The position numbers and the translations under genes were made by a program. Positions 1,067-63,963 of a DNA stretch of 64,000 nucleotides are shown piece after piece. The stretch lies in NCBI GenBank assembly GCA_951406725.2, contig OX597817.1:33294001-33358000 (forward strand), read 5' to 3'. The notes beneath the pieces are model-generated. The model saw nothing but the letters and a program-made list of their open reading frames with translations. It was not told where the DNA came from and made no database searches. Each line of letters begins with the position of its first letter. The first letter of the stretch is position 1. Source of the stretch: Octopus vulgaris (taxonomy: Eukaryota).

Positions 1067-1542
1067 ATATATATTGTTGGTAATAAAAGATGTTTTCTAG
1101 TAAATCAAAAACACACAAAAAAATCCATAAAATAACTCACTTTACGTTTAATAGCAAAAAAAAAAAAAGAAAAAAGTTTGGACAAGAGCACTCAGAGAGT
1201 GCAAGCCTCCATCAAGGCAATACCAACGTTCTTTCAACGATTAGCTGGAGATGATTTTTAAAATGAGAATATCTGAAATAAACTCACACAAACGAGAATT
1301 CTAAAAATGAACCTGACCGGTCTCAAAAATTAAGTAAAAAACAGGAAAAATAATCCAAAATCCTTGTCCGGCACCGATCGATGTTTAGTGAATTAATGTT
1401 GAGAATTATTGTTTGAAGAAGGTGAAAGTTGTTAATATTATTGGTGAAACGTCTCGCGCGTGCTACTTGCTGCTGTTGTTGCATTTTGCTATTCTTTTTT
1501 TGCCCCCATTTTGGGTGAAAAGAGAAACGTAGTCATTCCGGT

Positions 1543-3184
1543 ATGGAGAGCTACGCAAAGGCTGCTGCTGCGAGAACAGCCGCGTCATTAGAAGCAAAGC
1601 AGATTAATGTCAATATGGAAGAAATTTTGAGGAGTGAACAGTTAATAAGAAAAGAGGGAGATACTATTAAATTGATCCCTCCAACAGAGACTACAAATGA
1701 TAAAGTTTGGAAAACAGTGGTGTACAGAACACAAGCGGTTGCCACCAACAAGATAGAGTGACGGAAGAAGAAATAGAAGAATGTTTGGGCGAGATTGTAA
1801 AGAAGGCAACGTACATTGGCAGAAGAAGAAGATTTGACACGGTGGAGGTGAGGTTTGCCACAAAGGAAGAGGCGGCCTCACATTCCACCGCCATCCTGAG
1901 GACAGTGAAGGTAGCGCTATTGCCCACGTACAGGGGAAGGCGCAGTGTACGAATTAGGATACCAGAGGTACCACCTGATATCAAAACCGAGTGGTTGGTT
2001 GCAGCTGTGCTGGCTGCAACAGAGGACGACCCTGAGCTGGGACCAGTTGGAGAGACGAAAAAGTTAAACTGGTGGGAACTTGGTGTTGAAATGTGGCTTG
2101 TGGCCACATTTGAGGATATAGAACGAATCCCCTACCAGATTAAGGTTGAGGAGGAGAAAACGTTGAATGTGGTGGCGGAGGGACGGAGACCGAACTGTTA
2201 TACATGCGGAGTGAGAGGTCACATGAGGACCGAGTGCTGGTTATTTGAATTCTCGCATATCGAAAATGTGGTGGAGAAGGAGCAAAGGATAGAGCAGACG
2301 GAGGAGAGATTACAAAGAAAGAAAGATAAAATTGAGAAGGAAGTTAAAGAGAAGAAAAAGAGCGAAGTGAAAGAAATAAAGGAGGAGAGTGACGGGATTG
2401 TCAGCCCCAAAAGAAGGAAGAGATCTAAGAAGAACGCAAGAAAGGTAAGGAAAGACGTGAAGCTAAAAATATGCAAGAGAGAGAGAGAGAGAGGAAAAAA
2501 CAAATGATGAACTATGTAAATGTAAGGGTGCTTTGGTAGCGTATGAGAAAAGTGTGGATGCGAAAAGAAAAATTGCGAAAGTGAAGGGACTGGTGAGAGT
2601 GAAGCTGCTAGGAAACAGTTTTGATGCAGATGATAGAGGTGTTATAGGAGGCGCAATGGCCCAGTGGTTAGGGCAGCGGACTCGCGGTCATAGGATCGCG
2701 GTTTCGATTCCCAGACCGGGCGTTGTGAGTGTTTATTGAGCGAAAACACCTAAAGCTCCACGAGGCTCCGGCAGGGGATGGTGGTGATCCCTGCTGTACT
2801 CTTTCACCACAACTTTCCCTCACTCTTACTTCCTGTTTCTGTTGTACCTGTATTTCAAAGGGCCGGCCTTGTCACTCTCTGTGTCACGCTGAATATCCCC
2901 GAGAACTACGTTAAGGGTACACGTGTCTGTGGAGTGCTCAGCCACTTACACGTTAATTTCACGAGCAGGCTGTTCCGTTGATTCGGATCAACCGGAACCC
3001 TCGTCGTCGTAACCGACGGAGTGCTTCCAACAAAAGAGTTGTTATGATACCTGAAGAAAAATACGAGAGATTCAGAGATGGGTTTGTTGGAAATGTAAAA
3101 ATGGTGCAATGGGTTTGGTTGTATAAGATTCCACCCTCTGTAGTCGAATACGACGGGTTGAAAAGAATGGAGTTACAAAAATAG
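1543..3184 (+). pseudogene. Tx1/L1-type ORF1 (gag-like nucleic-acid-binding protein with one CCHC zinc knuckle), disrupted
   Basis: Starts MESYAKAAAA. Frameshift near 1750 into the 1707-2507 frame, which contains CYTCGVRGHMRTEC (CX2CX4HX4C, 2196-2237) and a K/E-rich region. Probable second frameshift near 2500 and a SINE insertion at 2648-3033. Reading resumes MIPEEKYERF...ELQK* at 3184. Confidence 0.75.
2648..3033 (+). mobile_element. tRNA-derived SINE family S3 inserted into the ORF of element A
   Basis: A-box TGGCCCAGTGG and B-box GTTTCGATTCC. The 3' ~200 bp is shared with the SINE at 5402-5973. Imperfect duplication AGAGGTGTTAT / AGAGTTGTTAT at the flanks. Confidence 0.85.
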
Positions 3185-3653
3185 AACTTTTAATTTGAGA
3201 AAAGGAAAAACTGGAAAAAAAATTCTAATGTAATTTTGTGACAAATGAAAAAAAAAAAAAGGACTATTGAAATATATATTCATTTTATGAAAAAAAGAAG
3301 ACTGTCTGAATGTAACCACTCGATTTCGGGGTTCGAGTGGGCATTGCGCCTCATTTTATACTCTTTCATATTATCATTCGTTTCTTTTATTTGTTTCCTC
3401 TTATTTCATCTTCTTTTGTAATTTTAAGTTCTCCGAGTTTGTTTGTCATGTTTTGTATTCGTCCCATTCTTTGTGGAGCCCCTTGTGGGTAATAAAGAAA
3501 TACCTGTCCTGTACTGATCGATCCCAAAGCCGAATCAATGCGTGCCAGTTGATATTTTGTGTTGGTGGTTTTTTGAATAGTTTTTTTGTGTTGCTTTGCA
3601 GCGGTTTGGGTGTTGACTTGTGTTTTGTTTGTGCTTTCTCTTCTCGTAAGAGA

Positions 3654-3891
3654 TGTTATGTAATCACCACCACAAACATGAACAATCAACGTTGCCCATT
3701 GTCTCCCTTGATACAAGGACATTCAGTAAGTTTCCCGCCACAACAAATACCTTGTACAACAACGGTAGTCTAATAAAGTATCTCGTATCGTTAACACGTT
3801 TTTTCAGTCTCTCTCATTTTCTTAATCTTTCATACTAAGTACTCACTACTTCCTTTAATACTCAATACATTATATATATATAACAACAACA
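3654..3891 (+). mobile_element. Solo LTR (238 bp) inside the 5' UTR of element B
   Basis: TGTT...AACA termini, perfect 5-bp TSD AGAGA (3649-3653 / 3892-3896), and an internal AATAAA at ~3772. Confidence 0.7.
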
Positions 3892-3910
3892 AGAGACAGC
3901 TGGTTGAAGA

Positions 3911-4324
3911 ATGTCTGAATACAGTTATAGTTACTCAAACATGTCATTGTCCGAGGAAAAGTTATTGGAGGCAGTTAAGACAATGGACCAGAAACTGATA
4001 AAAGAGAAGAGGAATTTTGTTGATGCAGCAAAGAAACCCCAAAACCCTTCCCCCAAGTCAAAAAAGAGAAGGGAAAAGTGTAGGATTTACATGTTGCTTA
4101 GCGACGAACTGTTAAGGGATTCGGCGGAATGGGACATAAAATGTATTGGAACTGCGGGGTATGATAACGCGGCGGAACATCACTTGTGTGTAATACCAGA
4201 TAAGAAGCAGGAGGAAAAAATACAAGAGTATATGGTTGGATTTTACTTTTGGGAGGTGGACTGTGATAGGTGGTTAGAGGAAACGGGTATCGATGTGTTG
4301 GAAGGTTCAGGATTTAAAATGTAG
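3911..4324 (+). CDS. Open 137-aa ORF of element B, unknown function (possibly a reduced ORF1 derivative)
   Basis: ATG-to-TAG open frame with purine-rich composition like element A. Basic SPKSKKRREK patch. By-eye similarity to the C-terminus of the element A ORF. Expression unknown. Confidence 0.45.
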   Translation: MSEYSYSYSNMSLSEEKLLEAVKTMDQKLIKEKRNFVDAAKKPQNPSPKSKKRREKCRIYMLLSDELLRDSAEWDIKCIGTAGYDNAAEHHLCVIPDKKQEEKIQEYMVGFYFWEVDCDRWLEETGIDVLEGSGFKM

Positions 4325-4565
4325 AAAATGAGGCCACTCGTGTAAGTGGGGCGAGAGGTTCAATTTCCATTTTTCATATTCATGTCTTCATACATTATGA
4401 TAGTCATTTCTACTTTTTTTATATATGTTTTATGTCCCACATGTTTTGTTTTGACACCTCTATGTTAACCCTCATGGGTAATAAAAATACAGATCCCAAA
4501 ATCTAATCAATTCGTGCCAGTCACGAGGCCAAACATCCTTGAAAGTTTCATCCGAATCCATCCAG

Positions 4566-4920
4566 CGTTACGTTCTGAGTTCAAATTCCGCCGAGGTCGA
4601 TTTTGCCTTTCATCCCTTCGGGGTCGATAAATTAAGTACCAGTTACGCACTGGGGTCGATGTAATCGACTTAATCCGTTTGTCTGTCCTCTCTGTGTTTA
4701 GCCCCTTGTTGGTAGTAAAGAAATAGAAATAAAGTGTCTTGCTCAAGGACACAACGCATCGCCGGGAATCGAACTCACGACCTTACAATCTTGTGCCGAA
4801 TGCTCTAACCACTAAAGCACGCGCCCTCACTTCATGTATTAGTCGTTAGGAAATCAACTTCTTCAAATTTGACACTACTTTTGAAGGGTTGCGAAAATTA
4901 AGCATTTACTGGAGCTGCAG
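4566..4920 (-). repeat. Inverted copy (~355 bp) of 5310-5674
   Basis: Reverse complement of 5310-5674, covering unique DNA, the S4 SINE head and most of the nested S2 SINE. One ~10-bp deletion and scattered substitutions. Confidence 0.92.
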
Positions 4921-5401
4921 ATATCTTGTCCACGGACAAACATACAAACACGACTGAAAACAATGCATCCGCCTTAGCGAAGGCGGCGGTAGTAACGAAC
5001 TACATATAGTTGATTTTTTTATTATCCACAAGGGGCCAACAATGAAATACATATAGTATCCACTCTCTCGGGAAATGACGCTTATGTTTTTTTTACTCCA
5101 CGGACTAAAAAAGCCACATGATCAAATCAATATCATATATATATTGTAATAAAGCTGTGAAAGGTTCATTGTTTAAAAATTTAAATACTTCTGAAACGCC
5201 ATCGATAAGATAAATTATGAAATGCGTTAAATGATGCTATTTCAATTACAGTTGCTTATGGTTTGTGTCTTTGTTGCTTAGTGAGTGAATCTCTAACCTT
5301 TCATGTCCCCTGCAGCTCCAGTAAATGTTTAATTTTCGCAACCCTTCATAAGTAATGTCACATTTGAAGAAGTTGATTTCCTAACGATTAATACATGAAG
5401 T

Positions 5402-5973
5402 GAGGGCGCGTGGTTCAGTGGTTAGAGCATTCGGCACAAGACTGTAAGGTCGTGAGTTCGATTCCCGGCGATGCGTTGTGTCCTTGAGCAAGACACTTTA
5501 TTTCTATTTCTTTACTACCAACAAAGGGCTAAACACAGAGAGGACAAACAAGGACAGACAAACGGATTAAGTCGATTACATCGACCCCAGTGCGTAACTG
5601 GTACTTAATTTATCGACCCCGAAAGGATGAACGGCAAAATCGACCTCGGCGGAATTTGAACTCAGAACGTAACGGCAGACGAAATACGGCTACGCATTTC
5701 GCTCGGCCTGCTAACGTTTCTGCCAGCTCGCCGCCTTCAAGACACTTTATTTCACGTTGCTCCAGTCCACTCAGCTGGCAATAATGAGTTGTACCTGTAT
5801 TTCAAAGGGCCGGCCTTGTCACACTCTCTGTCACGCTGAATCTGCCTGTGAACTACGTTAGGGGTACGCGTGTCTGTGGATTGCTCAGTCACTTGCACGT
5901 TATTTTCAGGAGCAGGCTGTTCCGTTGATCGTATCAGCTGGGACCCTCGTCGTCGCAACCGACGGAATGCTCC
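5402..5973 (+). mobile_element. tRNA-derived SINE S4 interrupted by a nested S2 SINE
   Basis: A-box TGGTTCAGTGG and B-box GTTCGATTCC. Split at 5505-5737 with a 16-bp TSD CAAGACACTTTATTTC. Confidence 0.88.
5505..5737 (-). mobile_element. SINE family S2 (core GCCTTTCATCCTTTCGGGGTCGATAAA)
   Basis: Full-length copy with a perfect 16-bp TSD (5489-5504 / 5738-5753). Confidence 0.92.
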
Positions 5974-5996
5974 AATACATACGTACATAATACAAT

Positions 5997-6777: not shown

Positions 6778-7175
6778 TTCTAAAAGGTGATTTTAATAGA
6801 GTATAAATTTTCCGACTTTTTCACATTTTCTGAAATGCCGTCTTTTACCCTAAAGTTTGCGCGAATCTTAGACCCGAGCTTTTGGTTTAGACCATACAAA
6901 ATCTAAAGAATAAGCGAATATACGGTGAAAGAAAAATAACGTTAATTGGTGACATTTCTTTCTCGGCAAATACAAGAGACAAATTCGGCATGTTTCATCC
7001 TTGTTTGTGATCCGCACTAGAAACTTAGTCTTATTGTAACTTAGCGGAGATCCATCGAACAAATTATTCAATAGAGCAGCGATTTTCAACCGTTTTCGAT
7101 CCACGCCAACTGAATGAAGAATTAAAAGTGTTGCGGCACACCAACAACTTTCTAAAAGTTCTGTTGCATAAAAAT

Positions 7176-7385
7176 CCTTTCTAATTTTGGCACAAGGCCA
7201 GCATTTTTGAGGGGAGGGAAGTTGAATATATCTATCCCAGTGCTCAACTGGTACTTATTTTATAGACACCGAAAGGATAAAAGGCAAAGTCGACCTCGGC
7301 AGTATTTGAACTCAGAATGTAAAGAGCCAGACGAAATGCCGCTAAGCATTTTGTCCGGCGCGGTACCGATTCTGTCAGCTCGTCC
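7176..7385 (-). mobile_element. SINE with S2 head/core and an alternative tail (..GGCCTTGTGCCAAAATTAGAAA)
   Basis: Shares the S2 head and core. Similar older copies at ~15890-16085, ~16400-16530 and ~62915-63145. Confidence 0.8.
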
Positions 7386-13415: not shown

Positions 13416-16400
13416 GTAAGTGATTCATTTATCGATTAATTTCTTTCTTTTTTCGTTCTTTTTAATTTTTTTTTTTAATTTTGCATTTAAAACAAATTAT
13501 CACTAAGTTTAATTTTCCTTTGAATTAATTTATTTACACTTTCTGTTTTCTTGTTTTTTTGTAACTTCGAAGTTTAAACACCGAAAACATGATCTTTAAA
13601 CTATACTTTGCGCGCCACTTGTCCATTTTTTTCGCAACACAATCCCGTCAGATTTAAAATAAGCACAGATGACTCACATCTTCAACATGAAAAAAGAAAA
13701 AAAAGATAGAATCAATACGCTGCATTTAATATTATCTGGACATTATATTTTTATTCAGTCCCACATTACTATTATTTATATTAAAAACCGCAAATTCTTT
13801 TTTGCTATTCGCGTATAAACAATATAATAATCACCACTCCGAATATTCAGATATACCTAGAAATGCAAATGTTTGTCAACATGAATACCTGGACTCGGAT
13901 TTGATGCATTTGATCGGGCTTCGGAGTAGACGCTTCTTTATAATTTTTTCTTTTCTTACTATTTCCATTGAAGAAAAAAAAGTAACTGCCAATCATGTAC
14001 GCGGCGGTTGGTGGTGGATTCTATTTAATCAATTATAAGATATATTTTCTTCTACAAAAATTACTTCAAAAAGAAACCGATGTTATCTACACAAACTGTT
14101 GTTCGGCAATTAAATTATTATTTGATGTAATTACATACAACAGAGTAGCCGAAACTTCTACGGACTGATTGTAGTGTTTGTTATAGCAATTTTCTTTTAA
14201 AAAAAAGTTAAACAGTCTTGTAAAAAGTGCTTAGAATGCAGGAACTGGACTGAAAATATAACGCGTTTGGTAAATCCATGTAAACAAATATAAAGCCGGT
14301 TCTAGAGTATCATATATACAGTTAGTTAACGCGATGAAACATGTCAATCCCGATTGATTATTTGAAGCGAGTTTAGCCTTCTTATTCTTTTCAACAAAAG
14401 ATGAAAAGCCGTAATAATAATTTTCATTTGTTGTTTATTATATTTTCTATTGTACAATTGCATATTTTATTTGTCTTTTAATATAACTGTGTTTTGACAC
14501 TATCATCACTATTGCCATCATATTCGACTGGCGCTACCCAATATTGAGTTGTCTCCGTCAAATAATACAAATACTTAAATCCTGTCGATCCTTGTTTTCC
14601 TACAAATAATAATGGGCGTTGCCCATGTTTTTACTTGAGCGAAAGAGGGAGAGAGAGAGAGAAATTCGAAGCAAGAGAATGAACGGGGAAAGGAAAAAAA
14701 TAATAAATGAATAAAATAAATTGTAGTATCAGCAGCGTAATGTACTTATTTACAAGTTGATTAGGATACTGCTAGTAGTAGTAGTAGTAGTAGTTAGACG
14801 GGAGCTTGAGCCATAAGTTAATGCCGGCAAAAAGAATAAAGGGGAGGCTTTAAATTACGTTTAGGGGACACAGTAAAAATAAATGATAGGAATAAACAGC
14901 AACTAGCTTCCACTTAGGACACTTGAAGTTCTAAACATTTCACTATCGATTTTTAAAAACGCTTCTCTAAAGTTCGTTGCCTGCAGGCGTTTGCATGCAA
15001 AAGGAATTCCAATATCATGTAGAATAAAATAAAATGTACTCTAATAGTTGATGCTGTACGATTCTACAAGCGATACAAAAAAAAATGTACATTTATGGAT
15101 ATACAGCAAATTTTTTTTCTTCTCGTTTTGATATAAGATTTCAAATATCACATAAAGTATGTATGTATATTAGTGTTATTAGATAGCGATATAGCATCAG
15201 TATCTCAACATATGCCAGCACATATATTGGTATGGGAGGGTGTGTGTGTGTTCTGGTGGTTTAAGTTATGCATATGTGTTGCTTGCGTCTGTGTGCAGAA
15301 AGATGCATGTCTACTGGTGATGTGGAAGTCTGCAGGTATGAATTGGCACATACGGTAAAATATATTTTGCATACATGAAATGTGGTTGGATCATGTACTA
15401 TGTTTATTGCAGGGTTGAATTATGTGTTGGTGTTCGTGCATTTAGTTTAAGCTGCTCTGCATTTCTTCATGTGCAACATTCACCTGTGGAAATTTATACA
15501 ATAAATATTTATGTAGGTATGCAATGTTTAGCTACATTTCAACCGTCGTAGACAAGACACAAGCTTATAATCAAATGCCGTCCCAGCCATGGCAGTATCG
15601 TTATTTATTTATTTATTCGTCTAGATTAGTAAACTTTGACATCAATATCCAATGTACCCATTTCTAAACCAGTAGGATGTTGTTATTTCTAGCATTTTGA
15701 ATGACTTGTCAGTCGCACCTTTATAGACATGTAGTTACATGTGTTAAAGACGGATAGTTAAGATTCTACATAACCTGTGCAACAATGGTAAATCATCCTG
15801 TAACAAACCATTTCTACACTCCTGGAAGAACTGAGTTCTATAAATCTGTTCTGCAAGCTGTCCATTAATTATGCAGTTCTGTATCAGGCTGCTAGCCGGC
15901 AGACTCGTTAGCACGCCGAACAAAATGCTTAGCGGCATTTCTGCATTTAAAATCCATCGAGATCGACTTCACCTTTCACCCTTTGGGATCGATAAAATAA
16001 GTAACAGTCGATCACTGAAATTGATCTAATCGACTAGCTTCCTACACCAAAATTTCAGGCCTTGTGCCTAAAGTACAGGGGTTAATTATGTAGTTTTCTT
16101 ACTGCTTGTAACAATGTAGTACTGAATGTAGTTAGGTGGAATGGACCAGTGGGAATTAAGTCTGTTGACCATTCATACAGCTACTTGATCAAAGGTGTAC
16201 TGGCATTGATTACACCATATTTATCCAGATTCTGGATATTAAGGATTACATTATGTAATGTGTTTCTTTATTATTTTTACAGCAGTAGAGTATACAGTTT
16301 GAAGGAAATTTGGCTGCTATTTCTAGCTGAGCGATCGACCATGCAGAGACTTTCCTGTGGTTGTAGTTTAGAAGTTTGCTTTGTGACCAGGTGATGCTTA

Positions 16401-16974
16401 GATTCCATCATATGGTACCTTGAAATTCCACAGAAGTCAACTTTGCCTTTCATTCTTTCAGGGTCAATAAAATAAATACCAGTTGAGCCCTCCCTTGAAA
16501 TTGCTGGCTTTGTGCCAAAATTTACAACCATCATGTGGTATTTTGGGCAAAATGTCTCTACTGTGGCCTCAGATCAGCTAAAATTTTGTAAGCAAAATTT
16601 GTTGAATGTATGTTACTCCTTGACTTTTCACCACAGGATCTAAACATATTTATGATTTAATCAACCATAACCTACGTCTTTGTTCATAGAAGTTTGCATT
16701 TAGATCTCATTTTAAATGCTAGCTTTTGTACACAAAGAAAGTATAAAGGTGAAAGTGTTACTATGTGGTTAAGAAGCTTGCTTTCCATGTGCAATACTTT
16801 GAGTAAGTGTCTTCTATTATAGCCCTGGGTTGATCAAAACCCTGTGTGAAGTCTGTTGGTTATGTGTGTGCACCCTTGTCTCGATGTCATGTAATGGTTG
16901 TATGACCTCTGTGCGGTCATTTGTCCTGCAAGAAATGATAGTGAAATCTCCCTCAAATCACCATCATATAAACT

Positions 16975-21378: not shown

Positions 21379-21715
21379 CCCGTGTCGCCTAACTGGCACT
21401 TGTGCTGGTAGCATGAGATAAAACATTCGAGCGAGGTCATTGTCAGTACCGCTGGATTGGCACCTGTGCAGGTGGAACATAAAAAGCACCATTTGAGTGT
21501 GGCCGTTGCCAGTACCACCTGACTGGCCCTCGTGCCGGTGGCACATAAAACCATCCACTACACTCTTGGAGTGGTTGGCGTTAGGAAGGGCATCCAGCTT
21601 TAGAAACTCTGCCAGATCAGATTGGACTCTGGTGCAGCCATCTGGTTTGCCAGACCTCAGTCAAATCGTCCAACCCATGCTAGCATGGAAAGCGGACGTT
21701 AAATGATGATGATGA
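21379..21715 (+). mobile_element. RTE LINE 3' UTR/tail fragment
   Basis: GGTGGCAC.TAAAA repeat units, TGGTTGGCGTTAGGAAGGGCATCCAGC and a (GAT)n tail. Confidence 0.88.
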
Positions 21716-21899
21716 GTATTCCTACTTAGATCTAACATTAGATCAATTGAATTGATCTTAAACTCAAGCAAAATACTGTTTAGTTCTGATATGACGTATA
21801 TGAAGGGAAATTCCATAACTATTTCATGTGTTATTTTATTTGTCAGCCCATTTACTGTTTTATCCTCATGAATTATTTACGTCACAACATTTTTACTGA

Positions 21900-27156: not shown

Positions 27157-28005
27157 AGAGTGTAAGTGCCTTGAGAGAAAAGTTGGACTTAAGAAGCATC
27201 AGATGTGATGTGCAAGAGAGACGACTGTGCTGGTATGGTCATGTGGTGAGAATGGATGAGGATAGCTGTGTGAAAAAGTGTCACACCTAAGTGGTTGAGG
27301 GAACCTGTGGTAGAGGTAGACCCAGGAAGACCTGGGATGAAATGGTGAAGCATGACCTTCGAACATTAGGCCTCACCAAGGCAATGACTAGTGACCAAGA
27401 CCTTTGGAAATATGCTGTGCTTGAGATGACTTGGCAAGCCAAGTGAGACCATAGTCCATGGTCTATGCCAGTGGTATAACCAGCCCACTTATGTGTACCT
27501 TTCCTTTATTGGACTCTAAACCCTGCTTGCGAAGACCTGTTGAGGCACGTGAAATCAAAATCAAATTCAATGACAGCACTGCATGACTGGCATCCGTGCT
27601 AGTGGAGCGCTAAGAGCACCATCCGAGCGTGATCGTTGCCAGGGTCGCTGACTGGCTCCCGTGCCAGTGGCACATAAAAAGCACCATTCGTGCATGATCG
27701 TTACCAGTGTTGCCTTACTGGCACATAAAAAAACATTCGAGCAAGGTCGTTGCCAGTGCCGCTGGCACATAAAAAACACCATTTGAATGTGACTGTTGCC
27801 AGTACTGCCTGACTTGCCCTCGTGCCGGTGGCATGTAAAAGCACCCACTACACTCTCGGAGTGGTTGGCGTTAGGAAGGACATCCAGCTGTAGAAACTCT
27901 ACCAGATCAGATTGGAGCCTGGTGCAGCCATCTGGCTCGCCAGTCCTCAGTCAAATCGTGCAACCCATGCCAGCATGGAAAGCGAATGTTAAATGATGAT
28001 GATGA
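27157..28005 (+). mobile_element. 5'-truncated RTE LINE (ORF C-terminus, 3' UTR, (GAT)n tail)
   Basis: LREKLDLRSIRCDVQERRLCWYGHVVRMDEDSCVKKC...EGTCGRGRPRKTWDEMVKHDL...DLWK is the classic RTE C-terminus. It links the many tail fragments in this window to an RTE. Confidence 0.92.
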
Positions 28006-30169
28006 ATATTGAAATGATTGCGTATGGTGCCCAGGTGCACTACAACTCATCAAAGGTGCATGTATAGTACATAGAATTATGTACAAATGTCAGGAAAGTG
28101 TATGAGTCATGATATACATGTGTGCATGCATACTTTATGATAGAGACGCCCATTTATAACTCATGCAATTTCAAGATAATAAAATAGTAACACACACATG
28201 TATACACACAGAATAGTTTTCTTTGAGTTTCCATCTATTGAATCCACTCTCAAGGATTTGGTTGGCTCATGGTTATAGAAGACACTTGTCTAAGGTGCTA
28301 TGCTGTGGGACTGAACTTGTCACCATGTGGTTGGAAGGCAACAGTTTGATAGGCTAACTAACAAAGTTATTCTTTTTTTCTTGAGAAAATTGATCTTAGA
28401 GCTAGCTGGCCAATACCTTAATAATTTCACTAGCAGACTAGTTACTTTGGGATCTGAAACATTTGGTATATTTATGTTACTATGTAAATATACCAAATAC
28501 TATTTCTATATATGAGTAAGTAGCTGAAGTCTAAATGTTGCTAGTTGTAGGTTCTAAACCTGCTCATATCACTAAATTGTGACCAATGAGTAATATAAGC
28601 TATATAAATGCCTTGGTATGAACCTACTTAACAATACTGTTAAATACAAAATCATCTACATATTGTGAATAGAATTGATGTTCAGTAAATGTAGTTCTTT
28701 GTGAAACAACCTGAATATAACAATAGGAATATCTGTCTGCTCTTCTAGTGAATTTAAAGTTGGTGGTAATCTCAGAAAAGTTGATTATTTTAAAACTTTT
28801 TTGTGTTGTCTTATCAAAAGAAAGGGAGAGAGCGTTTTCAACAAATGTACATCAACAAAAGTTCATTATTTTGTTAATTACAATCGATTGATTCAAGAAT
28901 AAAACAAATAGATATTAAATTTGAATCATTATTCTAAAATCATAGTCTTAATTACTGTCTGTTTTCTATGCTGATATGGGTCAAATGGTTTGACAGGAGC
29001 TGGTAAGGCTAGGGTCCCACCAGGCCCCATTGTCTGTTCTTGTAGGGTTTCTATGACTGGATGCACTTCCTAACGCAAACCACTTTACAGAGATTACTGG
29101 GTATTTTTGATGTGGCACTAACACCAGCATCAATTCTGCTGTGGTGGACAGGTCTTCTTGAATACAGCAAGGTGGCAGATATCTTGATCCTTTGTCATCT
29201 CCTTCACAAGGCTCAGTGTCTTGAGATTGGCTATCTGTACTTCATCCCATGTTGTCTAGGATCTTCCTCTTCTATAAGTACCATTACAAAAAAAAAAAAA
29301 AAAACCCCTTGAAACATTCTTGCAGATGGTTTGGTAAATAAATACAGGTCATATTATGAAAACAAAAATGGTTCAAATGTAAATGAAACCAAACTAGTAA
29401 TCTATGGTTAAAGTTGAGATTTGAGTATTGTGAAGACATTTTCTGACACAGTTTATGTTTAAGAGAACCACACTTTAGGATAGTCTGTAACACTGCTTTG
29501 AAGGACAAGATATTGAAATAATTAACTTTCAGCTGGTTTGGTTGCTTAGTTTCAGAGCTTGAAACAATGAACGACTTAATAAAGATCAAAGCATCTTACT
29601 GCTCTGTCTCTGCAATAACAGGCTGGGTTAGTGGGTTTGATATAAATGATCTTCCTTTTAATATTGTATCCTGGTGTTTATTGATTGACACAGCATCAAA
29701 GAAAATTGACTGCTTCTAATTCATAATTTGTAAGATGTTATTGACTGTCTAAATTTCATATTTACATGATTTTTATACATTTTTTTTCCATATTGGTCTA
29801 TATAGCAATTATTAATCACATTGATTACAGGTTGTTTTAGAATACTGAACCACACAAAACAAACATCAAGACATTCAGTGATTAATCTATTTTATCATAC
29901 TGAATAGTTATGGTGAAATTGCCATGACTTCTCATTTTATGGAATCGATAGCCTAATCTATTGCTGTATAATATTAGTAGCTCAGTTCTGAACCATTTGA
30001 TTTTTATATTCTGTATGGATATATAATTAAGAATATAATAATAAACTAAATAATTGCTTTCCATTCATTAACATATCTTGGCTTAGGTACCACCCAAAAT
30101 TTTCATTTTATTTTTTTTTATTTTGGCATGGATCGACTATGTCTACTGTACAGTATTTTTTATTTTTTA

Positions 30170-38619: not shown

Positions 38620-39262
38620 TTACCTTTTACTTGTTTCAGTCATTAGACTGTGGCCATGCTGGGGCACCACCTCGAAGAATTTTTAGTCAAATGTTTCGAC
38701 CCCAGTACTTCTTTTTATATAGTATGGTCATTGACTGCGCCACCGTAAAAAGCACCATTTTAGCTTGGGTGATGCTAGTGCTGGCTGACTGGTCTCATGC
38801 CGGTCATTGCCAGTGCCACCTAACTGGCTCCCGTGCTGGTGGCACATAAAAGCACCATTCAAGCATGGTCGATGCCAGTACCACCTGACTGGCCCTCATG
38901 CCGGTGGCATGTAAAATGCACCCACTACACTTTTGAAATGGTTGGCGTTAGGAAGGGCATCCAGCTGTAGAAACTTTGACATTTTTGACTGGAGTCTGGT
39001 GCATCCTTCTGGTTTGCCAGCCCTCAGTCAAACTGTCCAATCCATGCCAGCATGGAAAGTGGACGTTAAATGACGATGATGATGATCACAAACACACACT
39101 CAATGGGCTTCATTTAGTTTCCATCTACCAAATCCACTCACAAAGTTTTGGTTAGCTTGAGATTATTGTTGAACACACTTGCCCAAGGTGTCACACAGTG
39201 GAACTGAGCCCCAAACCATGTGGTTGAGAAGCATGCTTTTTACCACACAGCCACACCTGTGC
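38620..39262 (-). mobile_element. S1 SINE (minus) interrupted by a + strand RTE tail (~38722-39086)
   Basis: S1 tail at 38620-38715 and S1 head at 39087-39262, with an RTE 3' UTR and (GAT)n between them. Confidence 0.8.
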
Positions 39263-41558: not shown

Positions 41559-41788
41559 TGGTGAGCTGGCAGAAACGTTAGCATTCCAGACGAAATGCTT
41601 AGCGGTATTTCGTCTGTCTTTAACTTCTGAGTTCAAATTCTGCTGAGGTCGACTTTGCCTTTCATCCTTTCGGGGTCGATAAATTAAGTACCAATTATGC
41701 ACTGGGGTTGATGTAATCTACTTAATCTCTTTGTCTGTTCTTGTTTGTCCCCTCTATGTTTAGCCCCTTGTGGGCAATAGAGAAATAA
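41559..41788 (+). mobile_element. SINE S2
   Basis: Full head and core, tail TTTAGCCCCTTGTGGGCAATAGAGAAATA. Confidence 0.92.
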
Positions 41789-49989: not shown

Positions 49990-50807
49990 CACACACACAT
50001 ACATATATTGTTTAATAGATGGTGTTTCTCCCAGCAAGGGATATTGATGAAAAATATTCAGGACCATGTCCCTAGCTTAGCTTATTCTTAAATGTAGCCA
50101 TTCCACTCATTTTTTTTCTTGTAATTTTTAAGGTTTTAAAGAAAGGCATGAATATCAATATTTTCCTTTCTGTTGCTTTAAAAAGAAAATTTTAAAAGCT
50201 TAAGTCTATATATGAAAGCAGCATCAATTTGTTCTGAATTTAGAGTCACAAAAGCTGTTAGATCTAAACAACTTCTCTCACAATAACTGATATTCATGCA
50301 ATATTAGTTACTGATAGCACAATCACTTGAATGTAACCATTTGAACCAAAGAGAGGTCTTCATGATATTGCCTTATCTGCTTAAAAAAAAACCCTGAAAA
50401 ATGTCCCTCAAATCATATTCTTCTCTCTTAAAAATGGAAGATGTTTGCATGTGTCCAGGACCGTTCTTGATACTTTACACCATAATCATGACTTTAACAC
50501 CTTCTGATCACAAGTCTTCTGGTTTATGGTTAACCTGTGGTAAAAGAGCAACAACCTGCATAACCACAAACAAAGGAAACCTGTATGCAGTCACTTATTC
50601 GCAGGCATTAGTTAAATCTCAGGCAAACCACTTCCTAACATTGTGAAAAAATAGGAAAAGATACAAATAATGTAGTCCTTTATATTCACTGTATCTAGAT
50701 AAAGAAACAAGACAGTCATGGCTGGAATGCTTTTGTATCATAGGTCTGCTGAGCAAGACTGATTCGACTAGACTGCAAAATTTTCTTTGGAATGTGAAAA
50801 CTATTCA

Positions 50808-51233
50808 GCACACACACACCCACCCACACTTATGCACATACACACTCTCACACTTATGCACATACACACTCTCACACTTATGCACATACACACTCACACT
50901 TATGCACATACACACTCCCACACTTATGCACATACACACTCTCACACTTATGCACATACACACTCTCATACTTATGCACATACACACTCTCACACTTATG
51001 CACATACACACTCTCACACTTATGCACATACACACTCCCACACTTATGCACATACACACTCCCACACTTATGCACATACACACTCTCACACTTATGTACA
51101 TACACACTCTCACACTTATGCACATACACACTCTCTCACTTACACACACACACTTGCTCACTTACACACACACACACACACTCACTCACTTACACACACA
51201 CACTCACTCACTTACACACACACACTCTCTCAC

Positions 51234-51270
<37 letters not shown>

Positions 51271-51565
51271 CACTTACACACACACACACGCTCACTTACA
51301 CACACACACGCTCACTTACACACACACTCGCTCACTTACACACACAGACACACACACACACGCTCACTTACACACACACACACACACACACACTCGCTCA
51401 CTTACACACACACACTCGCTCACTTACACACACACACTCGCTCACTTACACACACACACTCGCTCACTTACACACACACACTCGCTCACTTACACACACT
51501 CACTCACTTACACACAATCACACACATTCACACACCTACACATTTTCACACACACACACACACAC
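50808..51565. repeat. Compound satellite: 24-bp unit CTCACACTTATGCACATACACACT grading into CACTTA(CA)nCTCGCT units
   Basis: About 13 near-perfect 24-mers followed by variable (CA)n-rich units. Explains the long His/Thr ORFs. Confidence 0.95.
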
Positions 51566-51569
51566 CAGT

Positions 51570-51890
51570 GCAAGAGTGCAAAATGTAAGAAGATTTCTTC
51601 TTAGATACAATGATAAGATGAAAAATGATATCAAGCATACTAGGATAAAGGGATCAGAATTTGATGACCTTAATCTGCTGATCATAACAGGTGAAGGGAA
51701 GTCTGTATAAACATCATCAGAAGTCATACGAACTCAAGGATTGAGCAGCTATGGGATCTAAGGCAAGGCTAAGAGAATCCAGATCCCTTTTAATGTTTTG
51801 CGTGTGATGGATGCTGCCTGGTTTGCAAAAACAAAGATCTAGTGCCTAACAGAAGACACAAGCATTAAAGTGTGAAATAAAAAAAAAAAA
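51570..51890 (+). mobile_element. Decayed 3' end of a BovB-like RTE LINE
   Basis: LRYNDKMKNDIK...I..SEFDDL, then a frameshifted ADHNR and a terminal C..C....C...H-like remnant, followed by poly(A). Confidence 0.55.
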
Positions 51891-52665: not shown

Positions 52666-52836
52666 CCAGCACCCACTACACTCATGGAGTGGTTGGCGTT
52701 AGGAAGGGCATCCAGCTGTAGAAACACTTCCAGATCAGACTGAGCCTGGTGCAGCCGTCTGGCTTCCCAGACCCCAGTTGAACTGTCCAACTCGTGCTAG
52801 CATGGAAAGTGGACGTTAAACGATGATGATGATGAT
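52666..52836 (+). mobile_element. RTE tail fragment fused to a minus-strand SINE tail (52625-52667)
   Basis: GCACCCACTACACTC...(GAT)5. The junction lies at a repeated GCACC. Confidence 0.85.
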
Positions 52837-53489: not shown

Positions 53490-54237
53490 TTATATATATA
53501 TATATATATATACATACACACACACGCGCACACATATACGCACGCGCATGTGTACACACACACATGTATATAATGGGTTTGATACTTTTATATTAATTGA
53601 TGTTCTGGCAGTCAAGTGTAGGCTTAGATATTTTTATAGCTCTGTATTGATCCTTGCCATTTCTTTATAATCACTCTGTTATCTCTTTGTCATCACCTGT
53701 TATTGCCACAATTCTCACCATATTTCTTTCTACTATCATTTTCATCAATCATTATTAGATTTGTATTGGTTATTTTCTGTTAATATGAGTAGAACTGGCC
53801 TACTGAATAGCCAGACATTTTCTGTGAATCTTTAGCTTAGTTTATTTCATCTGTGCTGGTTAATTTTTCAAATCCAGTTAACTATTCCACTCCCTAAGTT
53901 TTTTATGTCTCACCTTTCTCTTTTGGCTATCACATCTCTAAAGTCACAGGCAGTTTTTTTATCTATCTTTATCTCTTGATTCTCTTCATAATAATTAATT
54001 TCCATTTGTTTTCCCTGAGTCTATCATACTTGTTTGTATTGCCCAGAGAATTATTATAGATTATAGTTGTTACTTCTGTTGTCTTATGCATGCATCTTAA
54101 CTTTCAGAGCTTGAAATTGCAGCTTTGAGCAACCTAGAATTTACTTTTACAAACACTCAAGAATTCTTTTGTAGTTTTTAGGGGTGAATGTATTAAAATT
54201 TTGTTAGATTAAGCAAAAAATGGGTAACTTGGAAATA

Positions 54238-54478
54238 ATTAAAAAGCACCAACCGATCGTGGCCATTTGCCATTCTCCTCTGGCCCCTGTGCTGGTGGCA
54301 TGTAAAAAGCACCCACTACACTCATGGAGTGGTTGGCGTTAGGAAGGGCATCCAGCTGTAGAAACACTGCCAGATCAGACTGGAGCCTGGTGCAGCCTCC
54401 TGGTTTCCCAGACCCCGGTCGAACTGTCCAACCCATGCTAGCATGGAAAACGGACGTTAAACGATGATAATGATGATG
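54238..54478 (+). mobile_element. RTE tail fragment
   Basis: Same 3' UTR and (GAT)n tail as the other copies. Confidence 0.88.
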
Positions 54479-54658
54479 GTTTATATAGTCATATTAAAAG
54501 GAGTGATATCTAGACATGGTTTGTTGTGTTACTAGAGCATGGAGAGGTTCTAGCAGGACAGAACAACAGTGCCAAATCCTCTACAATCTAATTCTGTTTG
54601 AGTGCAAAATTGTGACACACTTGTCAGTGAACTGCACTTATGTTAGCTATTCATAGTA

Positions 54659-54875
54659 AGGCCGCGAGCTGGCAGAAACGTTAGTATGCCAGGTGAAATG
54701 CTTAGCGGTATTTCGTCTGCCGCTATGTTCTGAGTTCAAATTCTGCCGAGGTCGACTTTGCCTTTCATCCTTTCGAGGTCGATTAAATAAATACCAGTTA
54801 CGCACTGGGGTCGATGTAATCGACTTAATCTCTTTGTCTGTCCTTGTTTAGCCCCTTGTGGATAGTAAAGAAAAA
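54659..54875 (+). mobile_element. SINE S2
   Basis: Head GGCCGCGAGCTGGCAGAAACG, tail TTTAGCCCCTTGTGGATAGTAAAGAAA. Confidence 0.92.
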
Positions 54876-55399: not shown

Positions 55400-56252
55400 G
55401 TGTGACCAGTGCCCCCTGACTGGCTCCTGTGTTGGTGGCATGTAAAAAGCATTATCCGAACGTGGTCAATGTCCGGTCCGCCTGACTGGCTCCCATGCTG
55501 GTGGCACATAAAAAGCACCAACCAATCATGGCCAATGCCAGTACCCACTGACTGGCTCCTGTGCTGTCGGCATGTAAAAAGCACTATCTGAATGTGATCA
55601 ATGCCAGGCACACCTGACTGGCTCCTGTGTGGTTGACACATAAAAAGCATCCACTACACTCTCAGAGTGGTTGGCTGCAGAAACATTACCAGATCAGATT
55701 GAAAGAAATGAAGCTAGCATTGCTTCACTGGATGTGTAAGGTCAGTGTGCATGTACAACAGCATCTTGAGAGAAAAGTTGGGCATAATAGGCATCAGATA
55801 TGGTGTGCAGGAGAGACAACAGCACAGGTGTGGTCATATGATGCATATGGATGAGGACAGCTGTGTAAAAAAGTGCTGGTCTCTAACTGTGGAGAGAAAC
55901 TATGGAAGAGATAGACCCAGGAAGACGTGGGACAAAGTGGTGAAGCATGGTCTTCAAATGCTGGGTCTCATTGAGACAATGAGTAGTGACTGAGACCTTT
56001 AGTGATATGCTGTGCTTGAGAAGACCTTTCAAGCCAAGTGAAATCATAGCCATGGCCAATGTCAGTGTCCTGTAACTGGCACCAGTGCTGGTGGCACATA
56101 AAAGCACCCATTACACTCTGAGTGGTTGGTGCTAGGAAGGGCATCCAGCCATAGAAATCATGCCAAATCAGACTGGTGTCAGTGCAGTTCCTCAGCTTGC
56201 CCTCGTAAAACCATCCAACTCATGCCAGCATGGACAAGGGATATCAAATGAT
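55400..56252 (+). mobile_element. Two adjacent RTE pieces: a 3' UTR with 4 tandem units, then ORF C-terminus and 3' UTR
   Basis: 55745-55993 translates ILREKLGIIGIRYGVQERQ..CGHMMHMDEDSCVKKC...GRDRPRKTWDKVVKH. Confidence 0.88.
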
Positions 56253-57198
56253 AAATTGTGTGTGTGTTTGGATATATAGAGTTAGTGTGCTGTAGCATGT
56301 GCAATGTTAGAATGTAGAAATAGTAATTAAAGTGGAAATATGAGGTTTAATGGCACATGTTTAACTTGAAATATATTATAAAAGTATCAGATAACTAGTT
56401 AAGTGTATGGCAGTTTGTATCCAGTTGCTATGGAATCTTCAGCTAAAATACATAACTCTCTATGGCAAAATTCCAGGGGTTTTTTCTTGTTGTTTAACCT
56501 AAGATCAACCCTAAATGAACAGATCTGTGTTCTGATGTTCCAGTCATAACTACCCAGTCTTTATTCCAGACAGGGCTTTATCCAATGTGTTCATCTTAGA
56601 TTTGATAGAGATTTAGGTGATATTTCTAGCAAGATGAATGACCATGTAGAGGCTGCATCACTGGCTTGCCTGTTTCTAGATAGCTGGTATAATCCACTGC
56701 TTTCAGCAGTGGAAGCACTTTGAAATTTCCTAGTGTTTCATTGGTTTGCATTGCTAAGTTGGACTCCTCTTCGAGAAAAAGCTAAGTTATTTGTTATAAA
56801 TCACAGTCATCACCAAGGGCACACAGGGCTCTAAATTGCTTAATATTGGGAAAACTGGAATTTATCATTGACCTTGTGGAAAAGGATTAGCGTTTCTGTT
56901 TTCCTAGAAGAATTTACCTTGATCATAAGCTTGCTTATTGATTATATATTGTATTTGTCAACTCTGACATACTTCTCTTAAAAGGCTCCACAGTGAAAAT
57001 GTTTCTGAGATGCCTCTTATCAAATCAATCACAAAGTTAAATTGAAACTAATGTTTGGTAGCAACAGAGTACCTTTTTATGGAATCCATTAACACCTGGA
57101 TCAACAGGATCACAGAGTTGAATGTTTCTGATATACTCTGCAATGCTAGTGACAAAATAGGAATTGTTTGCACCATTTTTGATTCAGCAAAGTTGCAT

Positions 57199-61278: not shown

Positions 61279-62085
61279 GAGTTCATAAGGTGGATTAAGA
61301 TGTCTGCTTTGTCTTGTGGGAGTTGAATTCTATCTTCTAAGAAGCTACACAAATGCTTTAGATGAAAGCATTAATGTAATTGTTTATGCAAATAAATGTG
61401 ATGTTAGGAGTAGATTGATTCTTTTACTTGTCATTTACTTTGGGATTCACTTTTGTATATACACCTGTAACTAACAGAAAATATGGATTTGTGCATTTGT
61501 TTAGTTATTTCATCTCTTGGCAATGCTATAAATATATGATCTCTCTCTCTCTCTCTCTCTCTCTTACACACACACTTCGTTTCTAGGCATATTTTTGTTT
61601 TCTTAAGATGCATTCTTTTTTATATCTGTTAAGCATATTTTATAGGTTTATATTTTCAGAAGCCAGAATCTAATATTTCAATTTAGGATGGAGTAATAAG
61701 TGTGCATGTGTGGGTGTGTGTGTATTCTCATCATTTAACAGCCATGTTTCATGCTGGCATGGGTTGGATGGTTTGATAGAATCTGATGTGCCTATGAACT
61801 ATATTGTGCTCTAATGCCTGCTTTGGTTTCTATGATAGGGTACCCTTCCAAACACCAACCACTTTACAGTGTGTACTGGGTACTTTTTCTCATGGCACTA
61901 CCATAAGTGGGGTCAGCATGCAGTTTGCAAGACTGATTCCCTTCAACTGAATTGGGCTGCAGTAGAAAGAGAGGTGGCATTATGCTAGGAGATGAGGTGT
62001 AAATGTATGAGAGAAAGGAACAGAACAGGTTTCTTGCCGAACTCTGTAAAAAAGAGCCATCATTTAATTTGTTTGGAATTTTCTT

Positions 62086-62315
62086 ATTTCTTTATTGCCC
62101 ACAAGGGGCTAAACATAGAGGGGACAAACAAGGACAGACAAACAGGTTAGGTCGATTACATCGACCCCAGTGTGTAACTTGTACTTAATTTATCGACCCC
62201 GAAAGGATGAAAGGCAAAGTTCACCTCGGCGGAATTTGAACTCAGAACGTAACAGCAGACAAAATACCGCTGAGCATTTCACCCGGTGTGCTAATGTTTC
62301 TGCCAGCTCGACGCC
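62086..62315 (-). mobile_element. SINE S2 with 18-bp TSD
   Basis: TTTGTTTGGAATTTTCTT at 62068-62085 and 62316-62333. Confidence 0.93.
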
Positions 62316-63963
62316 TTTGTTTGGAATTTTCTTTTAAAATCCTAGAAATTTAAGATGTAACCAGTGACTTTGTGATTTGTTAGAAACTTGACCAGGAATG
62401 AGTAATAATGTGTGTAATGGGTGTGAGTGTTTATTTTAAGGAATGGCAGCACCCTTGCAAGTTCTAGCAGATGGTGAATGATCAGCTTCTGCAGATTGCT
62501 GCTGACAGAGAGGATTCTTAGAATATTAGTCCTCAGTTGAAAAAGTTGAGTAAAATGTTTGTATAGAATTTGGTGGGCAAGATAAGTGGGTGGATGTATA
62601 GTTATGCATTGGGATATGCAGCCTGCTGGTTATAAGAAACAGAAGCTGCTATAATAAATGGAGAAGAAGAATTTACAGAAAGAATAACACTCCTACAGGT
62701 TAGTAGCTGAAGTGTGTTGGTGAGCTGAATATACTTTATATAAGGATACCTTTAGGATTGCTTAGTCTGTGGCTTGAAGACCATCCTTTATACAGGTCAT
62801 AAACAAATGAGGCTTACACTTGAATTTTCTGGTCTAAAAGTATTTCAGATGCAGTAATAATGAATATAGTGTTACTGTGAGCCTTGATTAATATTGCAGC
62901 AACTGATTAAGTAGTGGATTGGCAGAATTACTAGAGTTGGATAAAATGATAACTGATAGTATTTGTTCCAGCTCTTTAGATTCTGAGTTCAAATCCTGCT
63001 GAAGTTACCTTTGCCTTTCATCCTCTGGGTTCAATAAAATAAATGCCTATCAGATACTGGCAGATGTGTGTGTATGTGTGGGGTCACTGATATCAACTAA
63101 CCCTCTCTCCTCAAAACTCTTTTGTCTGATTTAGGAACAATTATTTATAATAGTTATTGTCAGAGACACTTTTCAGTAAGCTTTTATGAAGGGGTTTGCT
63201 CTCCTCACCCTTATCTCTGTCAACAGCAGTCTGTTGACAGAGCTTGCAAGAGTACTGCCACAAGTTTACTCAGCATTCTAGAGGGTCCTACATTCTCCAC
63301 CCTCACTGAGTTAGTCTTTCTTTCTTTGTTTCTAATTGTTGAAGTTCTGAAATTTCGTAACTTTTGTGCCAAAAGCATTTTAAGATTTTTCATTTCTTTC
63401 CACACAAAATTTGAGTTTCAGTGGGATATTATAAGGCGGTGAAATATAACAAAAGAATGAAGATATACAGTGATTATAACTAAAGGTTCATTCTTCATTT
63501 GACTTGTAATGGAACATATAACCAGTGGTATACTAGTTAAAATAAAGCTCATATTTTAGTTGGTTTCCCTCAAGTATTGAAATAAGTACTAGTGGTATAT
63601 ACTAGTTAAACAGATCAGGAACAGAAATTATTGTGACCCATATTTTTGGAGAGAAGTTAATAAAAAGAAATTTTAAATAGGGTCACATGAAATTTTGGAG
63701 TGTTTAATTTCTTTCCAGCTTGTTCTAGTTTACTAGAAGAAAAAATAGGTGTAAGACCTGATGTTCTTGGGCAAATCTGGAAAAGCAAGGTAACTTTAGG
63801 AAAAAGGATGCATAAAAGTCTTCATTTAACGCAACATTTCTCAACTGGAGTTCTCTGGAATCCTAGGGGTCCACAAAAGGTTCCTAGGGGTTATGTGAGA
63901 GTGTGAGATATGCTCATTTCATGACTGTGATATTACTATACATGCACAACATATTGGTTATTG

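Follow-up and report, generated by a model that had tools for sequence, protein, structure and literature searches.

Within a stretch of 64,000 nucleotides of the Octopus vulgaris genome (contig OX597817.1 of assembly GCA_951406725.2, positions 33,294,001 to 33,358,000 of the forward strand; hereafter the window, in whose coordinates all positions are given), two neighbouring retroposons, here called elements A and B, carry no reverse transcriptase (RT) and end in a tail resembling that of a family of short interspersed elements (SINEs), here called S2. With a probability of roughly 0.55, A and B are decayed RT-less copies of what are likely families retaining only the first open reading frame (ORF1) of a long interspersed element (LINE), i.e., of half-LINEs, predicted to be copied in trans by an unseen LINE that is likely a member of the Tx1 group. 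The duplicated targets of both elements, together with the defined tail, mark their insertion by target-primed reverse transcription. The window itself is AT-rich animal DNA full of repeats, and all named protein relatives of its reading frames come from Octopus. Element A comprises the following parts:

1383..3502, forward strand: element A, with 5' untranslated region (UTR), broken ORF1, 3' UTR and tail, without ORF2
1358..1382, forward strand: left copy of the target-site duplication (TSD) of A; right copy at 3498-3522
1543..3184, forward strand: ORF1 of A, about 413 amino acids (aa) when read through with X, with two frameshifts
1543-1761: N-terminal part of ORF1
1758-2507: likely RRM region and CCHC knuckle of ORF1, followed by a basic/coiled part
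2485-2645 and 3046-3184: C-terminal part of ORF1
2646..3034, forward strand: secondary SINE inside ORF1, with an 11-bp duplication (10/11); second copy at 5788-5975

In the initial annotation, A had been described as a 2.1-kb element with a CCHC ORF1 running straight into its 3' UTR. While the CCHC motif and the lack of ORF2 were borne out, ORF1 is not intact, being broken by frameshifts near 1758 and at an (AG)n run near 2480 as well as by the inserted SINE of about 0.4 kb, without which A measures 1.7 kb. A 5' UTR of 160 bases lies ahead of the ORF1 start at 1543, and the 318 bases between the stop codon and the tail hold no remnant of ORF2. In addition, none of the 93 stop-free frames of at least 78 aa in the window matched a Pfam family of RTs or endonucleases. 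The TSD of A is identical at 20 of 25 bases and has a score of 30, the 99th percentile of 3000 random window pairs being 23.

Three protein searches revealed four O. bimaculoides gene models (P0001, P0002, P0003 and P0005) that are 57-76% identical to ORF1 of A. P0001 matches pieces one and two within a single frame (57% identical) as well as piece three (41%), for the last of which none of 1000 shuffles reached the score; since P0001 thus joins the broken frames of A, the read-through is confirmed up to the SINE. For the last 46 residues the protein searches gave no confirmed relative. The knuckle is matched by the Pfam family zf-CCHC (E 7e-4, just short of the curated cut-off), and the Atlas matches comprise CCHC clusters (0.90-0.92) and ZCCHC3-type RNA-binding clusters (0.87-0.88), scores below 0.9 counting as leads only; one row below 0.9 carries PRE_C2HC. 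A Foldseek search with the predicted model of A listed mostly RRM proteins among its top rows, none of them significant (best E 0.07), and a sequence search of the PDB returned two weak knuckle matches only. No match to Transposase_22, the type II ORF1 of L1, was found by Pfam in A or B, a metagenome scan with the ORF1 alignment gave 589 pattern matches of which none was confirmed, and Rfam returned only microsatellite-type miRNA noise. Judged by its sequence, A encodes a homologue of the ORF1 protein, broken in the present copy, which looks like a CCHC ORF1 of the likely RRM type (type I).

Element B follows directly downstream:

3550..4490, forward strand: element B, with 5' UTR, ORF, 3' UTR and tail, without ORF2
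3520..3549, forward strand: left copy of the TSD of B; right copy at 4492-4521
3654..3891, strand not assigned: insert in the 5' UTR resembling a solo long terminal repeat (LTR), 238 bp, with TG...CA ends and a 5-bp duplication, belonging to a high-copy repeat
3911..4324, forward strand: ORF of B, 137 aa; an internal deletion near codon 40-45 (about 4020-4045) has likely fused its two parts in frame

As annotated earlier, B measures 0.7 kb without the LTR-like insert and has an open 137-aa frame, a length that was reached by none of 2000 shuffles. The base make-up of this ORF is the same as that of the ORF of A, 166 bases separate its stop codon from the tail, and the TSD is identical at 26 of 30 bases (score 44). 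For evidence from other copies, contigs of 4 of 24 sequencing runs were compared with the window, three of which were usable; run X22 was dropped, 23 of its 12.9 million reads having fitted, none at 95% or more, with almost none on an abundant SINE. The contig pieces considered are the best-supported ones listed, with 179,542 further ones beyond these, and an absence among them weighs little. Contig X9-23 matches B only from 4029 (codon 40), its 670 upstream bases not being listed as fitting, and the O. vulgaris gene model P0004 is similar to residues 1-45 only. As both break at codon 40-45, we infer that the ORF of B derives from a longer one and was shortened in frame, so that it probably represents a shortened copy and not a 137-aa protein family; an insertion in the copy sampled by X9-23 would also explain the break in that contig. 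Among the best-supported rows, seven variants over the ORF of B (two silent, five not) look private to this copy. Related contigs have 12 extra bases at 2337, in frame within ORF1 of A, and about 33-37 at 4260 within the ORF of B; the window copies may have lost stretches at both positions.

The tail that connects the two elements with S2 is found at the following positions:

3440..3502, forward strand: 3' tail of A in common with S2, with a 4-bp stem and a 5-nt loop, then an AATAAA-like signal
4446..4490, forward strand: 3' tail of B, S2-like but more diverged
5505..5737, reverse strand: S2 copy with a perfect 16-bp duplication
41560..41787, forward strand: S2 copy (at 41559 in the initial annotation), no duplication found
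54658..54875, forward strand: S2 copy (at 54659), with an internal tail deletion and a duplication of 15/18
62085..62317, reverse strand: S2 copy (at 62086) with a perfect 17-bp duplication and the best tail match to A and B

Long duplications, claimed earlier for A, B and two of the S2 copies, were recovered for A, B and the S2 copies at 5505, 54659 and 62086. As to the single tail proposed for A, B and S2, a likeness over 45-60 nt was upheld (none of 300 shuffles for the best pairs), whereas the literal motif TGGGTAATAAA is exact only in A and B and differs in each of the four S2 copies. The tail of A aligns with that of S2 at 62086 over 63 columns (81%, E 2.7e-7), and for all four S2 copies the score of A was reached by none of 300 shuffles; for the tail of B (about 45 bases) the corresponding counts are 0, 0, 1 and 63 of 300. 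A and B can be aligned with each other over about 140 bases of UTR, the last 100 of which gave a score reached by none of 300 shuffles. Instead of poly(A), the tail has AAAGAAATA at its end, and a short stem-loop just ahead of the AATAAA-like signal folds in A, in B and in two of the four S2 copies. The tail pattern had no match in metagenome, prokaryote-genome and viral collections, which hold little octopus DNA and therefore provide no evidence.

Three further SINE copies have the S2 head and core with a different tail, at 7165-7382 (reverse strand), 15886-16090 (forward) and 16420-16540 (forward), and their tails have no match to A or B. The S2 tail can therefore be regarded as a swapped module, as would be expected of an end derived from a LINE. 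The tail at 7165-7382 forms a stem with the CTTGT loop of S2 and other paired bases, and the copy at 15886 folds differently. The core of S2 is presumably of the Deu/Nin type, and ARAGORN predicted no tRNA gene in the window. Another short element, at 5012-5110 on the reverse strand, ends in the shared tail (30/35 with A) and has a hairpin-like stretch 25 bases upstream; neither a duplication nor a 5' end was found for it, and it may represent a third user of the tail, in truncated form. In the region 5400-5975, a SINE related to the one inside ORF1 of A has in turn received the S2 copy at 5505-5737.

The region 1100-5800 can be read as a nest in which both A and B lie inside one outer host repeat spanning about 1179-4990:

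1179..1382, forward strand: 5' part of the host repeat (Helentron/HINE-like, non-autonomous), with very high depth and empty-site joints to 4492
4492..4990, forward strand: 3' part of the host repeat, interrupted at 4566-4920

This nesting had gone unmentioned in the initial annotation and is shown by empty host sites in all three usable runs, where contigs join 1341-1376 to 4492. A and B occupy that site, with their two nicks about 20 bp apart. The host repeat is very abundant in the sequencing-run contigs and carries a 9-bp subterminal inverted repeat (1179-1187 paired with 4924-4932) as well as a 3' hairpin with a 7-bp stem (4969-4986), where the HINE criterion applied asks for subterminal inverted repeats of at least 11 bp and a 3' hairpin. 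It resembles the non-autonomous Helentrons HINE and DINE-1 (PMC4067079) in its subterminal inverted repeat, 3' hairpin, T-rich 5' flank and lack of coding capacity, but the inverted repeats of HINE in mites measure 12-15 bp. The present host copy also contains, at 4566-4920, an inverted duplicate of 5310-5674 (94% identical, 355-365 bases) including parts of two SINEs, which looks like a templated break-repair insertion and not a retro-insertion. An S2-like piece at 4566-4726 was considered as a third insertion into the host and rejected, since it belongs to this duplicate.

That the elements might be single-copy, as considered in the initial annotation, does not hold for ORF1, given the four O. 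bimaculoides relatives and diverged contigs. Whereas contigs on A at 0.3-2.1% represent the same locus or near-identical copies, others on ORF1 differ by 8.5-20%. The annotation had also proposed to look for copies with the same junction from ORF to UTR and without ORF2. For B, the junction is kept by two contigs stemming from different studies, X9-23 (diverged by 7.9%) and X15-16 (by 7.4%), both of which cover the stop codon, the UTR and the tail and go on with the same host flank. Judged by A, which is at 1-2% in the same run, such a divergence is too high for this locus, and the junction of B is therefore not unique. The corresponding junction of A is spanned by none of the pieces listed. 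Relative to the same-locus contig, summed depth, which is not a copy number, has a median of about 6x over the ORF1 bins of A and amounts to 4-8x over the ORF of B; judged by depth, this points to small families. A ten-fold step in depth at the start of the UTR of A was considered as proof of a master element and rejected, because the stretch is rich in A and its single positions have depths far below the means of the bins. In run X9, the depth is 80-96 over A and the host 5' flank, as against about 20 over the high-copy LTR-like repeat. The mismatches between the TSD copies suggest old insertions, very roughly 20-30 million years of age, a crude figure from 25-30 bases and the rate of PMC13282606.

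Under the half-LINE reading, an ancestral LINE would have lost its ORF2 and kept 5' UTR, ORF1 and 3' UTR, and the half-LINE RNA would make its own ORF1 protein and package itself. The RT of the master might then recognise the last 45-60 bases, consisting of a small stem-loop before an AATAAA-like signal without poly(A), and prime reverse transcription at the nick, giving rise to duplications of 16-30 bp. S2 would have acquired the same tail and use the same RT, the present ORF of B would be the in-frame remnant of a longer ORF1-type gene, and the master may have a preferred site in the Helentron-like host, comparable to the preference of Xenopus Tx1 for Tx1D. It is doubtful whether one can go further and assume that a single Tx1 RT serves an abundant Deu-type SINE and two or more distinct ORF1-only families via a structured tail of 45-60 nt, and that the half-LINEs home to one fixed position within a rolling-circle element, by which they may then be carried on.

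A serious rival, although a somewhat unlikely one, is that each of A and B arose from an ordinary two-ORF LINE by a one-off internal deletion, either in the course of reverse transcription or following insertion, which would require two independent clean losses of ORF2 at one spot, itself an unlikely event. Other ORF1 copies would then reside in full LINEs, and the S2 tail would belong to an ordinary two-tier SINE-LINE pair. A number of observations weigh against half-LINE families, and several of them speak directly for such deletions. Among the contigs listed there is, as said, none that spans 3184-3250 of A, where the stop codon leads into the 3' UTR, and UTR-bearing contigs seem to lose their likeness to A near 3240-3250. 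Contig X9-21 carries 3248-3496 of the UTR of A (12% substitutions) behind 753 bases not fitting A, which may represent flank, a diverged ORF1 or the ORF2 of a master. Depth is also higher in the 3' UTR bins than in the ORF1 bins (about 68 units versus a median of 6), the gap being smaller at single positions (only 400-1400 versus 200-600). Against a deletion, the 318 bases retained in A hold no trace of ORF2.

With respect to B, its ORF would be a chance in-frame join of the start of ORF1 to the end of the last ORF, and the break of both relatives at codon 40-45 is compatible with this. Its C-terminal part, however, matched no ORF2 among 1.84 billion proteins and is modelled mostly as beta strands, if with low confidence, and a search among proteins of 437-2000 aa gave one match, to an ORF1-only model, which is weak evidence against deletion. 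Further points to be held against the half-LINE reading are that the protein of B has a single match among the 1.84 billion representatives (58% to P0004), with no Pfam family, Atlas match or fold match; that the AlphaFold models of A and B are poor (pLDDT, the predicted local distance difference test, 43 and 47, respectively); and that the C-terminal parts of the two proteins are only weakly alike, the score being reached by 334 of 1000 shuffles in local and 18 of 2000 in hand-trimmed global alignment. Moreover, a single TSD-flanked copy cannot separate a family from a later deletion, a depth of about 4-15x the same-locus contig in most bins over both ORFs is low for a successful parasite, and, as the S2 copies of the window lie outside the host repeat and the nicks of A and B are about 20 bp apart, there is no strict target site.

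If A and B are half-LINEs, a Tx1-group LINE is the likely donor of their RT, on account of the weak ORF1 evidence, the abundance of L1-Tx1 in O. vulgaris (80 families, 13 of them recently active, 421 insertions; PMC13282606) and the habit of Tx1 elements of targeting other repeats, with Xenopus Tx1 inserting into Tx1D (PMC4494074). A putative target preference here would be based on the two insertions in one host and on the two diverged B contigs with the same flank. It is rather improbable that the half-LINE reading is right with a master from another clade whose ORF1 has RRM and CCHC parts (Nimb, I, CR1 or L2, the usual partners of molluscan SINEs), an explanation that overlaps with the preferred one. 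ORF1s of the I and Jockey groups usually have several knuckles. The single CCHC after a likely RRM in A and the ZCCHC3-type rows agree with a type I ORF1, made up of RRM and CCHC, as is tied to Tx1-like elements of non-mammalian animals (PMC5203782), and insertion into a host of the DNA-transposon type is a Tx1 habit (PMC4494074), whereas the lack of poly(A), the PRE_C2HC row and the SINE partners of bivalves (CR1, CR1-Zenon, L2 and Nimb, with Tx1 not mentioned in the accessible part of PMC11481361) would accommodate another clade.

That A and B inserted once and were then multiplied by rolling-circle copying of the host or by segmental duplication is very unlikely, for although both diverged B contigs extend into the host flank that adjoins B here, the ends of the host are Helentron-like (features from PMC4067079) and the same host copy holds the templated inverted duplication, X9-23 differs from B upstream of 4029, the ORF1 relatives differ by 8-20% in the runs and by about 40% of amino acids in O. 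bimaculoides, beyond what one composite would allow, and X9-21 has the UTR of A followed by about 990 bases not listed as fitting.

Half-LINEs as proposed here for A and B would not be new in kind. ORF1-present non-autonomous LINEs are named in three clades, i.e., HeT-A (Jockey), HAL1 (L1) and Ag-Sponge (CR1) (PMC5786205), all of which resemble A and B in having LINE-like ends, no ORF2 and one ORF1-type gene (a putative one in B), and whose protein is thought to aid packaging, with the RT being supplied in trans (PMC5786205, PMC5753468). A and B differ from them by their invertebrate host, likely Tx1-type CCHC ORF1, lack of poly(A), structured tail in common with a SINE and low copy number; HAL1 proper has the type II ORF1 (Transposase_22) and a poly(A) end, neither of which is found in A or B. 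HaTad1 is the ORF1-only half of Tad1. A closely comparable case is found in Blumeria graminis, where SINE2-1_BG is listed with Tad1-24_BG and HaTad1-3 and 1-5 for one 3' tail (PMC3747384); there, however, the clade is the fungal Tad1 and the master is known, while here the host is an animal and the master unseen.

Stringent L1-clade pairs of SINE and LINE, such as maize ZmSINE2/3 with LINE1-1_ZM and Chlamydomonas SINEX-3 with L1-1_CR (PMC3747384), are like A, B and S2 in that a short conserved 3' stem-loop is common to both partners, but they come from plants and algae, and no animal L1/Tx1 tail pair is named in the accessible part of that paper. Xenopus Tx1 in Tx1D and crocodilian SINEU-3 in Mariner-N4 (PMC4494074) are likewise non-LTR elements arranged in tandem, and separated by a duplication, within a non-autonomous DNA transposon; the present case differs in its Helentron-like host, in elements without RT, in nicks about 20 bp apart and in a putative preference seen at one locus and in two contigs.

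The initial annotation had presented a three-tier system of master, coding parasites and SINE as not known to be described in cephalopods. While known in kind, as outlined above, it has indeed no cephalopod precedent that could be found: neither ORF1-only elements nor this tail pair are reported for cephalopods in the full-text literature searched, which included neither subscription papers nor the libraries of Repbase, Dfam and PMC13282606 (Zenodo), and the accessible parts of PMC4758252, PMC4824008, PMC5753468 and PMC11203168 contain nothing on this element family. A and B are likely a new cephalopod case of an ORF1-only LINE type already known elsewhere.

The main octopus SINEs are tRNA-Core and tRNA-Deu (PMC8967140), the latter accounting for about 61 Mb of the O. 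vulgaris genome (PMC13282606 supplement). If the half-LINE reading is true, a likely enzyme donor would be named for the tail of one main octopus SINE, Tx1 would join the clades giving rise to ORF1-only parasites, and the system would offer natural tests of whether ORF1 made in cis helps an RNA to win RT in trans and of the minimum tail length for recognition by an L1-group RT. Should the more far-reaching version hold, an animal Tx1 with strict tail recognition would support parasites on three tiers, with a DNA-type host beneath them. As it stands, the finding consists of two dead copies of a known element type, and is mainly for specialists in mobile DNA.

A second link between A and B that had been proposed earlier, a CCACT...AGTGG stem-loop in both 3' UTRs, was confirmed in A, where it forms in the predicted fold, but not in B, where it is absent from the lowest-energy fold:

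3316..3340, forward strand: CCACT...AGTGG hairpin in the 3' UTR of A, 8-bp stem
4334..4349, forward strand: CCACT...AGTGG motif of B, 5-bp stem

There are 11 occurrences of the pattern on the forward strand of the window, against a mean of 1.0 in shuffles; most of them belong to an unrelated repeat and none to S2. The hairpin is weak evidence for a link between the two elements. The unrelated repeat is abundant, consists of tandem 65-66-bp units with a (GAT)n end and has a CCACT...AGTGG palindrome of its own that is unrelated to A and B. Its copies are located at:

21414-21720
27583-28010
38746-39087
52668-52836
54221-54478
55416-56263

Finally, at 50739-51600 the window contains an array of CA-rich 24-bp units grading into shorter CA-type repeats, which results in long open frames of low complexity.

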